Below are positions 6,526 through 62,632 of a stretch of DNA of 64,000 nt, piece by piece. The first letter of the stretch is position 1. The number at the start of each line of letters is the position of its first letter. The notes beneath the pieces are model-generated. The model ran no database searches, was not told the origin of the DNA, and saw only the letters and a program-made list of their open reading frames with translations. Position numbers and translations under genes: made by a program. The DNA is taken from positions 2,871 to 66,870 of the forward strand of contig JBEKHY010000005.1 of the NCBI GenBank assembly GCA_050012035.1, given 5' to 3'. Source of the DNA: Verrucomicrobiota bacterium (GTDB lineage Bacteria; Verrucomicrobiota; Verrucomicrobiia; Limisphaerales; UBA11358).

Positions 6526-6600
6526 TGTAGCCGCAACCTTCAGTTTGCGATTGCCTGCTTGGCGTGGACCGCCAAACGCAAACTGAAGTTTGCGGCTACA
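6526..6600. repeat. Long hairpin (24-bp stem, 1 mismatch, 27-nt loop) between convergent genes
   Basis: TGTAGCCGCAACCTTCAGTTTGCG (6526-6549) pairs with CGCAAACTGAAGTTTGCGGCTACA (6577-6600). Confidence 0.8.
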
Positions 6601-6617: not shown

Positions 6618-7958
6618 CTAAACCGTTCCCGGCGGCCATAGACTTTGGCCAACGTCCGTCCGGAAATAGCTGCCTACCACGCGGATTTTCCGGATGTTCG
6701 TGTAAGCCTTTGCGATGGCTGCCTCGAGCTTCGGCGCGAGCGCGATCACGTCTGCAATGCGATGCCCGGTCGCCATCAATTTGCCATCCGCGCCGCGCGC
6801 CACTTCGTTCCACCACACGTCGCAATCAAATTTCCCGTCCACTTCCAGCGGCATGTGCGGGCTGCGCACCTGCGTGAATGGATAACCGTAACCGGCCAAG
6901 GTCAGCGAGCAACCAAAGTTCAGTTTTTCGTTGAACCGCAAATTTAACTTCTCATTTCGCGCCGTCCGCAAGACAGTTTCCGCCGGATTTCTCAGCATCC
7001 GCAAAATCATCGGGCCGGACGTAACCCCGATGCGGATGTTGTATTCGATGACGTGCCAGCGTGGGACAGGCATCTTGCCTGTCTCTGATTTTTTGTTTTG
7101 GGACGGAGACAGGCTGGAAGCCTGTCCCACTTTAATCGCCGTCACTTGCAACGGTCCGTGGTAATTCACGCGCCGCAGCCATGGCCGCAGTGGATGGATC
7201 AATTCACGCGCCAGACCGTATTTGTCGTCCGGGTCGCGCTCGACCAAGCCGCCGAGCGGCGCGCCGGCGACGATGCCTTGGTTGCCGTTGAACGCGTATT
7301 TGTATTCCTGGTTGGTGACGAGTGAATAAATCTCGCCGCCGCTGACCAGCACGATGTGCCCGGCCTCGGCGCGTCCGAGATACTCCTGCAAAAAAACGCC
7401 TTCGGCGTAGTTGACATGCCGCAGCCACGCGCGCGTATCCTCGACCGTTTCGCACAAAATGGTGTGAATCGGGCTGGTCGGCGAGCAGAGTGGATTTTTG
7501 ATGACGAACGGCTGCGGGTGTTTCGCCAGAATTTTTTCGGCCTCCAGCCGATTCGAAGCCACGTAAGCCTGCGGAAACGGAATTTTGAAATCGGCGCACA
7601 GCCTCTGCGCAAAGTCCCGTTCGCGCTCGATGCGCATTGCTTCGCGCGTCGGGCTGAAAATACCCACTCCCGATGCCAGCAAATCCTCCGCCCATGGCTG
7701 CCATGCCCAGTCAATGGATTGGGGAATGACGACCTCGATGCCGTTCTGCTTGAGTAGCGGAACGGGGCTCGGGAACGAACTGTAAGAATAAGCCGGCCCG
7801 ACGAGTGAGGGCGGGAAATGGCCGTAATTGCGCGTGAGATAGGTCGAGACGCGCGCGCCGGTGTCAGCCAGCGCCCCGCCGATACTGTGGGCGAACGAAC
7901 CGACGCCAAGCACCATGAATGAGGCGCCGCGCCGCGGTTCTGAAAATTTGCGTGCCAT
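6618..7958 (-). CDS. Divergent PurD-family ATP-grasp ligase (substrate unknown)
   Basis: Collinear with PurD (N domain, ATP-grasp, C domain; WHVIEYNIRIG corresponds to VIEFNCRFGDPE), but the GGREHA and AAGKGV motifs are not conserved. The start is uncertain (ATG at 7958 or 7916). Confidence 0.6.
   Translation of the reverse strand: MARKFSEPRRGASFMVLGVGSFAHSIGGALADTGARVSTYLTRNYGHFPPSLVGPAYSYSSFPSPVPLLKQNGIEVVIPQSIDWAWQPWAEDLLASGVGIFSPTREAMRIERERDFAQRLCADFKIPFPQAYVASNRLEAEKILAKHPQPFVIKNPLCSPTSPIHTILCETVEDTRAWLRHVNYAEGVFLQEYLGRAEAGHIVLVSGGEIYSLVTNQEYKYAFNGNQGIVAGAPLGGLVERDPDDKYGLARELIHPLRPWLRRVNYHGPLQVTAIKVGQASSLSPSQNKKSETGKMPVPRWHVIEYNIRIGVTSGPMILRMLRNPAETVLRTARNEKLNLRFNEKLNFGCSLTLAGYGYPFTQVRSPHMPLEVDGKFDCDVWWNEVARGADGKLMATGHRIADVIALAPKLEAAIAKAYTNIRKIRVVGSYFRTDVGQSLWPPGTV
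7061..7130. repeat. 70-nt double-hairpin palindromic element inside the PurD-like CDS
   Basis: GTGGGACAGGC-ATCTT-GCCTGTC ... GACAGGC-TGGAA-GCCTGTCCCAC. It is translated in frame as GQASSLSPSQNKKSETGKMPVPR. The same GACAGGC/GCCTGTC hairpin core recurs at 48587-48605. Confidence 0.75.
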
Positions 7959-8168
7959 GAAAATGTGCAGCCCGAGTGTTCCCCAATTTTGTTTACAGTG
8001 CAATGTCAAGTCACTGCGTGGCGCCTGCGCCTCGCGGTCGGTAACAAGTGTCATGCCTGATTCTCATGGATAAACCGAACAATCCGGCGCGACGCCGAAT
8101 TGAACCCGCGAGACGCCGGTGCTATCACATAATCCGGCTGTCTCGACTTTGACCGGCGTTTTGTTATC

Positions 8169-9419
8169 TTGTTTTTCGTGAGTTTTGTCTCCGAGTTCAA
8201 TTCATTGCCAGCGCAGTCGCTGGCGCAAAAGTCGTTGGCGGCCGGCACATCGGCGGTGCGGGAAAGCCTCGCGAAATCCAAATTGTCGCTTGCGGATCTC
8301 GCGAACCTGATTTCGCCGGCGGCGGCCGAATTGCTGGAACACCTGGGCCGGCGGTCGCACGCGATGACGCAGCAGCGGTTCGGCAAGGTCATCCGGCTGT
8401 TCGTACCGCTCTACCTTTCCAACGAGTGCATCAACAACTGCCAATACTGCGGTTTCTCGCGCGACAACCCAATTCTGCGCGTGACGCTGTCGCTCGACGA
8501 AGTGCGGCGCGAAGCCGACGCACTACGCGAACAAGGCTTCCGCAATCTGCTGCTGGTTGCGGGCGAGCATCCCAAATTTGTTTCTCTGAATTACCTCAAG
8601 GATTGCGTTGCCGCGCTGCACCCAGATTGGCCCGGCATCTCGCTCGAAGTCGGGCCGATGGAAACCGCCGACTATGCGCCGCTGGTCGCGGCTGGCGCGG
8701 ATGGACTGGTGGTTTATCAGGAAACCTACGATCGCAAAGTTTATGCGGACATGCACACCGCCGGACCGAAACGGAATTTTGACTGGCGGCTGGAAACGCC
8801 GGAGCGCGCCTACGCGGCGGGTTTCCGGCGGTTGGGCATCAGCCCGCTTTACGGACTGGCCGACTGGCGGTTTGAAGCGATTTGTGTTGCCGCCCATGCG
8901 GATTTTCTGTTGCGCAATTGCTGGAAGGCGGCGGTGACGATTTCGCTGCCGCGGCTGCGTCCTTGTGCCGGTGAATTCCGGCCCCTCACGCACATGAGTG
9001 ACCGCGACCTGGCGCAACTGGTGTGCGCGTTTCGCCTGATGTTTCCCGATGTCGGGCTGGTGCTTTCGACGCGCGAATCGGCGAAACTGCGCGACGGTTT
9101 GCTTCCGCTGGGCGTGACGATGATGAGTGCGGGCAGCCACACGGAGCCGGGCGGTTACACCGGCGCAGGAAAAGAAAAGCTGCATCAAACCGTGCGCGGC
9201 CGGATCGTGGAACTGGCGTCCGGTGCACCTGTGTCGCCGAAGCTGCGAATCAGCGGCGAAGGCGCAAGCGAATGGGCATCCGCGCCGGAAAACGCAACGG
9301 CCGCCACCGGGCAATTCGAGATTGCCGACGGCCGTTCACCGCGGGAAGTGGCGGACTTGATCCGCAAACTCGGCTACGAGCCGGTGTGGAAGGATTGGGA
9401 CACGGCGCTGACGGCGTGA
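8169..9419 (+). CDS. thiH: 2-iminoacetate synthase (tyrosine lyase), radical SAM
   Basis: LYLSNECINNCQYCGFS (CxxxCxxC); C-terminal QFEIADGRSPREV...GYEPVWKDWD. A ThiS gene lies just downstream. The start is a TTG from the ORF track and is uncertain. Confidence 0.85.
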   Translation: MFFVSFVSEFNSLPAQSLAQKSLAAGTSAVRESLAKSKLSLADLANLISPAAAELLEHLGRRSHAMTQQRFGKVIRLFVPLYLSNECINNCQYCGFSRDNPILRVTLSLDEVRREADALREQGFRNLLLVAGEHPKFVSLNYLKDCVAALHPDWPGISLEVGPMETADYAPLVAAGADGLVVYQETYDRKVYADMHTAGPKRNFDWRLETPERAYAAGFRRLGISPLYGLADWRFEAICVAAHADFLLRNCWKAAVTISLPRLRPCAGEFRPLTHMSDRDLAQLVCAFRLMFPDVGLVLSTRESAKLRDGLLPLGVTMMSAGSHTEPGGYTGAGKEKLHQTVRGRIVELASGAPVSPKLRISGEGASEWASAPENATAATGQFEIADGRSPREVADLIRKLGYEPVWKDWDTALTA

Positions 9420-37179: not shown

Positions 37180-37280
37180 CTCGATCCTAATCGGTCCCTC
37201 GGTCAAATATAAAAATCGAGGATCGAGGATCGAAGACGAGTCGAGATAAAAGTTTGTCCGAGTGACCGATTAGGGTCGAA
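37180..37280. repeat. 28-bp imperfect inverted repeat (24/28) with 45-nt loop containing tandem heptamers
   Basis: CTCGATCCTAATCGGTCCCTCGGTCAAA (37180-37207) pairs with TTTGTCCGAGTGACCGATTAGGGTCGAA (37253-37280). The loop contains TCGAGGA-TCGAGGA-TCGAAGA. Confidence 0.7.
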
Positions 37281-48578: not shown

Positions 48579-48586
48579 TATCGTAG

Positions 48587-48641
48587 GACAGGCGTCCCGC
48601 CTGTCTCCATCTTTTTGTAGCGGCGCTCTATGAGCGCTGCT
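48587..48641. repeat. Two GC-rich hairpins between the MFS and FAH genes
   Basis: GACAGGCG-TCC-CGCCTGTC (48587-48605). TGTAGCGGCGCTC-TAT-GAGCGCTGCT (48616-48641) overlaps the MFS stop codon. Confidence 0.6.
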
Positions 48642-62557: not shown

Positions 62558-62632
62558 CGGACAGCTTGTCCGTGAGTTGGAGTTCAAGCCTTGGCTTGTT
62601 TTCCCGACGCAGGCTGAAGCCTGAACTCCAAC
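62558..62632. repeat. Hairpin pair between convergent genes
   Basis: CGGACA-GCT-TGTCCG (62558-62572). GTTGGAGTTCAAGCCTTGGCTTG (62576-62598) pairs imperfectly with CAGGCTGAAGCCTGAACTCCAAC (62610-62632). Confidence 0.65.

Follow-up and report, generated by a model that had tools for sequence, protein, structure and literature searches.

A palindromic repeat inside a PurD-like gene

The stretch of DNA analysed here, 64,000 nucleotides (nt) of contig JBEKHY010000005.1 from a Verrucomicrobiota bacterium of the order Limisphaerales (hereafter the window), carries on its minus strand an open reading frame (ORF) for a PurD-like enzyme, whose neighbours are thiS and a ThiH-like radical-SAM gene in divergent orientation. 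Inside this ORF lies a 70-nt element at positions 7061–7130. A previous interpretation made from the letters alone (the sequence-only reading) described it as a double GACAGGC-N5-GCCTGTC hairpin with GTGG/CCAC ends, lying in frame in the coding sequence, and the DNA is exactly that. We consider it very probable that the element is a REPIN, an inverted doublet of REP sequences (repetitive extragenic palindromes), from a GT[AG]G family associated with REP-associated tyrosine transposases (RAYTs), and that it was inserted in frame in a tolerated turn of the enzyme. The features concerned are listed below, class A being the REP class of the window copy.

6618–8054, minus strand: PurD-like ATP-grasp ORF that hosts the element; its true start probably lies around 7958 or 7916
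7038–7046, minus strand: E-Y-N codons, the ATP-grasp E-x-N motif; five codons past the insert, aligned with LEFNARFGDPE of 2ip4
7061–7130, no strand given: complete class-A REPIN, two inverted REP units and a spacer, in frame in the host ORF; encodes VGQASSLSPSQNKKSETGKMPVP(R)
7061–7085, plus strand: REP unit 1, GTGG head followed by GACAGGC-ATCTT-GCCTGTC and TC
7086–7105, no strand given: A/T-rich REPIN spacer; the coding sense reads (P)SQNKKS
7106–7130, minus strand: REP unit 2, inverted; the minus-strand reading is GTGGGACAGGC-TTCCA-GCCTGTCTC
48583–48613, plus strand: intergenic singlet REP of class A, GTAGGACAGGC-GTCCC-GCCTGTCTCCATCT

The element runs from GTGGGACAGGCATCTTGCCTGTCTC through a 20-nt spacer (TGATTTTTTGTTTTGGGACG) to GAGACAGGCTGGAAGCCTGTCCCAC; its arms are 25 nt each and 88% complementary, and each REP unit is itself a palindrome behind a GTGG head, with a 7–8-bp stem of the form GACAGGC-N5-GCCTGTC. 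We identify it as a REPIN because a GT[AG]G head, a palindrome and an inverted doublet together make up the RAYT-REP/REPIN signature (PMC3116915, PMC3733652). The window contains just three matches to the hairpin core, at 7065, 7108 and 48587, and 100 dinucleotide-preserving shuffles contain none. A 90-nt stretch containing the REPIN has a single long hairpin as its minimum-energy fold, at −43.6 kcal/mol as RNA (z −6.8) and −25.2 kcal/mol as single-stranded DNA (z −6.9); an Rfam scan of the element returned nothing at the gathering threshold and only miRNA-precursor hairpin models below it. The recurrence of the core near 48587, already pointed out by the sequence-only reading as intergenic, is a singlet REP between two minus-strand ORFs, with a GTAG head and the tail GCCTGTCTCCATCT common to other class-A members.

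The minus-strand ORF translates through the REPIN as ...AIK-VGQASSLSPSQNKKSETGKMPVPR-WHVIEYN.... The peptide and its place just ahead of the E-x-N motif had been given correctly, whereas the stated gain of about 23 residues comes down to a net 20 when orthologues with an empty site (K-RGGK-W) are the reference. By its profile matches, the host protein is PurD-like with a conserved E-x-N motif and falls short of the curated PurD criteria (TIGR00877, or GARS_N, GARS_A and GARS_C all passing): GARS_C passes (1.1e-9), GARS_A scores 22.8, below its cut-off of 27, no other GARS domain passes, and the match to TIGR00877 purD reaches 95.7 bits for a cut-off of 288. Its closest relative in the PDB is the PurD of Thermus thermophilus (2ip4, E 3.7e-21). 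In the phmmer alignment to 2ip4, YAGLMLT and REGPKVLEFN (REGPKVLEFNARFGDPE) stand on either side of the gap that takes the insert, just ahead of the E-x-N motif, a position that in ATP-grasp enzymes is presumably the turn preceding the strand with that motif. An AlphaFold2 model built from 15 near-identical sequences was unusable (mean pLDDT 39.7), and the insert is positioned by the 2ip4 alignment.

Empty and filled sites in orthologues

More than 2000 relatives were found by protein search; the best 120 of them, compared at the insertion spot, are 80–99% identical outside it and hypervariable at it. A scan of species-representative genomes yielded 80 loci (1.33 Mb), all in metagenome-assembled genomes (MAGs) of Limisphaerales or Verrucomicrobia subdivision 3. 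Loci that have to be told apart below carry L numbers. Orthologues of the host protein are 77–99% identical, and in 46 of the 80 species the site is empty and reads AAR CGC GGC GGC AAR TGG (K-RGGK-W). The other 34 species and the window, 35 of 81 sequences, are filled with inserts of 9–114 nt, all at the K-RGGK-W turn. The cleanest junction (L034) has AAA, the insert and then an intact CGC GGC GGC AAA TGG. No target-site duplication was seen at the L034 junction, which fits the single-strand mechanism of Y1 HUH enzymes and speaks against a DDE-type MITE (a miniature transposable element with inverted repeats). None of the 80 orthologues encodes a homologous loop peptide in DNA that is not palindromic; they carry either the empty four-codon turn or a palindromic insert, as expected of an inserted repeat rather than an ancestral loop.

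The reading frame is kept in all 80 orthologues, with a stop codon inside the insert in L047 only, and the median dN/dS of the gene without its insert is 0.106 when both members of a pair are filled and 0.107 when both are empty. These two results support the view that the insertion is tolerated and that the gene is not a pseudogene. Of the two outcomes that the sequence-only reading had left side by side, a tolerated loop therefore fits the orthologues and inactivation of the enzyme is not supported.

Some inserts have degraded stems (L005, L007). An AT-rich hairpin that only L012 and L047 carry in the 2.14 Mb of loci searched is nested in the class-A spacer in L012 (10787–10966); in L047 (8157–8297) it replaces most of the REPIN and adds the in-frame TAG, which may mark a pseudogene, result from an error of sequencing or be recoded.

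REP classes at the turn and elsewhere

The inserts at the turn sort into at least six DNA classes of GC-rich inverted doublets, which mostly start with GT[AG]G and finish with C[CT]AC; copies of class F elsewhere start with CTGGGAG.

Class A: GT[AG]GGACAGGC-N5-GCCTGTCTCC, then an inverted copy; the window and nine species
Class B: GGTGGGGCGAGCGTCC...; three species
Class C: GTGGCGGCGACGCCCCGTCGCC...; ten species
Class D: GGTAGGGACGCG...; one species
Class E: GTGGCACAGGCGTCCCG...; two species
Class F: GGGAGCGCCGGCG...; four species; in L010 and L016 nested within a class-A left end

Class A is widely dispersed. An exact-pattern scan of metagenomes found it at at least 120 loci, none of them in the PurD-like gene among the matches listed. 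An inverted partner accompanies 96 of the 127 matches listed, with a spacer that is most often 13–28 nt long and in a second group 79–83 nt. All 127 have a GTAG or GTGG head, as the pattern used demands, and so do the copies in orthologues. Whole class-A units of 64–70 nt, spacer included, are 87–92% identical to the window copy at unrelated loci (L127, L110, L168, L095), the tail CTCCATCT and the spacer recur at unrelated loci, and L010 and L020 share an orthologous intergenic class-A doublet. Six loop pentamers predominate (GTCGC, TTCCA, ATCCT, ATCTT, GTCCC and GTCTC), and the two loops of the window copy, TTCCA and ATCTT, are among them. For classes B, D, E and F, too, the 2.14 Mb contain copies away from the turn. 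The bases adjoining the GT[AG]G head on its outer side are unevenly distributed in the 127 matches: 54% have A at −3 and 60% have C at −1. Either the element is slightly longer than its GT[AG]G boundary suggests, or its targets may be chosen with some preference.

Class-A copies also lie inside other genes. Among the matches listed (L081–L200), 104 had enough flank to be evaluated, and 44 of these (about 42%) sit in a long open frame, defined as stop-free and extending 80 codons or more in both directions; random segments of 70 nt drawn from these loci do so in 51% of cases. All ten hosts tested are housekeeping genes and have a Pfam domain spanning the insert: LeuRS, PheS, MutS, GlnRS, a class-III aminotransferase, a Ser/Thr kinase, a class-I tRNA synthetase of the ValRS/IleRS type, ArgRS, Hsp70 and PurM. 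Orthologous pairs share the insertion site in PheS (L089/L133), MutS (L097/L112), GlnRS (L110/L168) and Hsp70 (L196/L200). A word search of proteins with concatenated REPIN peptides gave 20 candidates. For annotation it is worth noting that the peptides VGQAS.LSPS...ETG..PV.R and RRTG..PVS...GDR.DACPT come from repeats and turn up again and again in unrelated proteins of these MAGs.

Link to RAYT transposases

Leads from tblastn in L110 and L121 were checked with NCBIfam and Pfam models. In L121 an ORF between two class-A REPINs matches NF047646, the NCBIfam model for REP-associated tyrosine transposases, at 65 bits (E 5.9e-18) and Pfam Y1_Tnp at 22.3 bits, and has an HxH motif; homologues of its product are widely annotated as RayT. 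The two closest homologues on long contigs, P0128 (L201/L202) and P0129 (L203), are 58–61% identical to the L121 protein and have class-A REPINs on both sides (REP segments at 1399–1513 and 2128–2240 in L201, and at 1385–1570 and 2197–2311 in L203). A predicted RAYT gene flanked by REPs of its own kind was thus found at three independent loci, none of them from the window's own genome.

Several of these genes are merged with their surroundings. The L121 locus (metagenome contig Ga0207933_1001818, 10506–13448, minus strand) is a 980-residue DinG-like helicase ORF (Helicase_C_2 4.6e-46, DEAD, DEAD_2) that holds, just past its TSATL motif, an in-frame block of class-A REPIN, RAYT-like ORF and class-A REPIN, and the RAYT-like gene lies in the host ORF without a stop codon. 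Many RAYT homologues (P0133, P0136, P0141, P0184 and others) are called as single ORFs in which the RAYT follows a D-Tyr-tRNA deacylase domain (PF02580 and PF01797, about 353–383 residues). L204/L205 (1501–2583) carry such a fusion, and in L204 the linker VERASSPSVPVERASRLL is a translated REP of a related family (GTGGAACGGGC-N5-GCCCGTC). The ATG called as the start of the L201 RAYT lies within the loop of the flanking REP (GGACAGGCAGG-ATG-CCTGTCCTAC), and a RAYT C terminus extends into the downstream REPIN (...GAVGQASCLS...). The L110 RAYT (1871–2587) scores 87.8 bits, above the NCBIfam cut-off, and the REPs flanking it belong to another GTAG family (TGTAGCGTTGAGCCTGTGGCTCAAC), so that several REP–RAYT systems coexist in these bacteria.

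Repeated occupation of one turn

Six families, A to F, occur at this one turn, where 35 of 81 sequences (43%) are filled. On a bootstrapped neighbour-joining tree of the gene without its insert, which is star-like and of which only clades with a bootstrap of at least 70 were used, sister species differ in state as follows.

L010 (class F) and L020 (class A): bootstrap 100
L003 (class A) and L048 (empty): bootstrap 100
L008 (class C) and L017 (empty): bootstrap 99
L002 (class B) and L011 (empty): bootstrap 90

One six-species clade shows the states C, F, empty, F, A and empty. The junctions differ as well, with classes A, C and E beginning right at the end of the Lys codon and classes B and D preceded by an extra TGC AAT, and together with the sister states this indicates several independent insertions and replacements.

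Nucleotide divergence peaks around the site in the filled/empty sister pairs L003/L048, L045/L020 and L004/L051, and in the orthologue alignment the residues 8–11 positions upstream covary with occupancy, NYHGPI going with an insert and [KR]F[NS]GPL with its absence. The local peak and the covariation suggest either replacement of alleles by recombination or local co-adaptation. L008/L017 show no peak and L006/L018 a slight rise only, and such pairs look like recent insertions.

A de novo scan with strict criteria detected 132 long hairpins in the 1.33 Mb, of which 10 lie at the 12-nt turn and about 14 in the spacer 3′ of the gene; the turn behaves like a REP-prone intergenic spacer. In the window, that spacer holds a second GTAG-headed REPIN from another family (6526–6600; TGTAGCCGCAAC...GTTGCGGCTACA), with 28-nt arms that are 93% complementary, just 3′ of the PurD-like stop codon, and at about 14 orthologous loci it holds other hairpin repeats, for example of the AACCACGGATGGACACGGAT type. 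The inverted repeat native to the empty site (GCCAT...ATGGC) was considered as a hairpin target and rejected, since A-V alleles, which lack it, are filled as often. The preference for the turn is most likely explained by permissiveness combined with hairpin-for-hairpin replacement.

Proposed mechanism and alternatives

The Y1 HUH enzymes of IS200/IS605 cut and join single-stranded hairpin DNA without target-site duplication. By analogy, an inverted GT[AG]G REP doublet would fold as one long hairpin in single-stranded DNA and a RAYT would mobilize it in trans; to our knowledge, RAYT-catalysed transposition of REPINs has not been reconstituted. The copy in the window would have entered between the Lys and Arg codons of the four-residue turn K-RGGK-W, which the 2ip4 alignment gap places just ahead of the strand with the metal- and ATP-binding E-x-N motif. 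Because the insert has a length that is a multiple of three and is stop-free in this frame, it would be translated as a hydrophilic loop, and the enzyme, with a loop about 20 residues longer, probably keeps working. In Limisphaerales, different REP families have colonized or recolonized the turn many times, most likely because the protein has a permissive gap here that resembles an intergenic stretch and in which a hairpin already present makes replacement or nesting easier; homologous recombination may also carry occupied and empty alleles between lineages.

Several points weigh against this interpretation. A tblastn search with a RAYT query, covering the window and the 1.33 Mb of its 80 orthologous loci, found no RAYT there, and the link to the transposase comes from contigs of other organisms. 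The window holds just one further class-A copy, a singlet, which is sparse for 64 kb, and the single other copy of class C in 2.14 Mb gives that class a weaker status as a mobile family. Exposure of the loop at the protein surface is predicted from the 2ip4 alignment and from general knowledge of ATP-grasp folds, and the encoded peptide is presumed neutral and the enzyme functional on the strength of sequence comparisons. An occupancy of 43% at a single 12-nt site is also not obviously explained by random insertion followed by tolerance.

A selected function of the hairpin or loop is a rival to permissiveness and replacement, one that we regard as a minority view and improbable. The hairpin would then be retained as an antisense terminator, as an mRNA signal for ribosome pausing or RNase processing, or for a useful longer loop, and REPs would be mere raw material. 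The occupancy of 35 in 81 is about that of the REP-rich spacer 3′ of the gene; on the antisense (plus) strand, REP unit 1 (7063–7085) and a run of T match the terminator pattern, the sense-strand hairpin being followed by an A-rich run; and nearby residues track occupancy (NYHGPI when filled, KFNGPL when empty). But the occupants are unrelated in sequence, in length (9–114 nt) and in peptide, stems have decayed in L005 and L007, the 46 empty species have the same dN/dS, and close sister species are in different states.

Two further explanations dispense with RAYT-mediated transposition. Palindromes might have formed in place, through template switching or quasi-palindrome extension during replication of a hypervariable GC-rich loop, and in keeping with this the start of class C, GTGGCGGCGAC, resembles the empty-site string GCGGCGGC, class C has its one other copy in 2.14 Mb, and no other copy was found there of the nested AT-rich hairpin (L012/L047) or of the L059 and L069 inserts. 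Full-length copies at unrelated loci reject such growth for class A, the class of the window, and for B, D, E and F, a rejection that does not extend fully to class C; class A moreover flanks RAYT genes, and most classes bear the GT[AG]G head typical of REPs, so that we give in situ growth very little credence overall. The small size, lack of coding content, dispersal and inverted ends of the element would also suit an ordinary MITE descended from an insertion sequence of the DDE type, but this reading deserves next to no weight: the cleanest junction (L034) has no target-site duplication, the termini are GT[AG]G-headed REP hairpins that do not resemble insertion-sequence terminal repeats, and every transposase gene that was found with the repeat on its flanks is a RAYT. 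The sequence-only reading, which had proposed a repeat of REP/MITE type, thus had the right kind of element in its first term, a REPIN of the RAYT-associated GT[AG]G family, and not in its second, a MITE with terminal inverted repeats and target-site duplications.

A wider proposal goes beyond the REPIN interpretation of 7061–7130, and we offer it as a speculation that is rather unlikely to hold. REPIN–RAYT systems of Limisphaerales may have moved from an extragenic to a largely coding lifestyle, in which insertion would be nearly blind to ORFs, the copies would survive as stop-free hydrophilic loops in housekeeping proteins, and even the RAYT would lie in frame in host genes (dinG and the dtd fusions); the PurD-like turn would be an actively preferred landing or replacement site, with alleles swapped by recombination. 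If so, RAYT-mediated insertion into genes could be followed in nature at this turn.

Relation to known repeat systems

RAYT-associated GTAG REPs were reportedly described by Nunvar in 2010. The window element has their GT[AG]G head and short GC-rich palindrome, and with REPINs in general it shares spaced inverted doublets that form one hairpin, many copies, here dispersed over metagenome loci, and a cognate RAYT flanked by the same repeats (PMC3116915). Unlike classical REPINs, which are almost wholly extragenic, the window copy lies inside a conserved enzyme gene, as the 44 of 104 class-A copies noted above lie in long frames; extragenic location is part of the name of REPs and not of their mechanism. 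The resemblance to IS200/IS605 elements (TnpA, Y1 HUH) would lie in subterminal hairpins recognized in single-stranded DNA and in insertion without target-site duplication. A REPIN differs from them in being a symmetrical doublet with no transposase of its own.

Intragenic GTAG REPs are known, and their highest number occurs in the verrucomicrobium Opitutus terrae, in which dimers encode 20–30 residues (Di Nocera et al. 2013, PMC3733652); in Xanthomonas recB, different REPs lie at about one site (PMC3733652). The O. terrae repeats are like those described here in belonging to Verrucomicrobia, in their GTAG and often GTGG heads and in dimers translated inside known proteins, and the peptides of O. 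terrae GTAG-19 (WHGRLARV...TGGTPVP) resemble our class E (PMC3733652). The present set differs in order (Limisphaerales), REP sequence family and host gene, in that one turn, traced here through 80 species, has housed no fewer than six families in rapid turnover, and in RAYT genes that lie inside host ORFs.

Palindromic repeats in frame were also reportedly described in Rickettsia by Ogata et al. in 2000 and 2002 as Rickettsia palindromic elements (RPE), for which we know of no dedicated transposase. Like the elements studied here, RPE are translated within functional genes and have a large intragenic share. They are longer (about 100–150 bp, compared with 70 bp for the window element) and form a CGTC-tagged superfamily, whereas the tags here are GTGG and GTAG, so that only the in-frame lifestyle is common to both; their hosts have reduced, obligate-intracellular genomes, and ours are large genomes of free-living soil bacteria. 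The Rickettsia palindromes are summarized in PMC3733652.

What is new here is the REP family, the host lineage and the host gene, and the case stands out for dense independent events at one codon-level site and for a direct tie to RAYTs. In-frame palindromes, of which those of Rickettsia are the classic and best-known examples, are thereby connected to one defined REPIN family whose RAYT genes can be identified, in hosts that are abundant free-living Verrucomicrobia of soil and peat. Occupation of one codon-level site by at least six families over 80 species also provides a concrete target, AAR|CGC GGC GGC AAR TGG, with matched filled and empty alleles, which allow tests of how RAYTs place REPINs, of the rate at which REPINs are replaced and of how a protein absorbs 10–40 residues beside an active-site strand.

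Other observations in the window

The BATS domain of the ThiH-like neighbour (8169–9419) contains about 58 additional residues (at about 9190–9310; 146 residues on an 88-position profile), and the DNA of this stretch is not palindromic and gives no sign of a repeat origin. Two further intergenic inverted repeats lie in the window, one at 37181–37279 and one at 62576–62632 (GTTGGAGTTCAAGC...GCCTGAACTCCAAC), the latter with relatives in L030, L055, L067 and L079.

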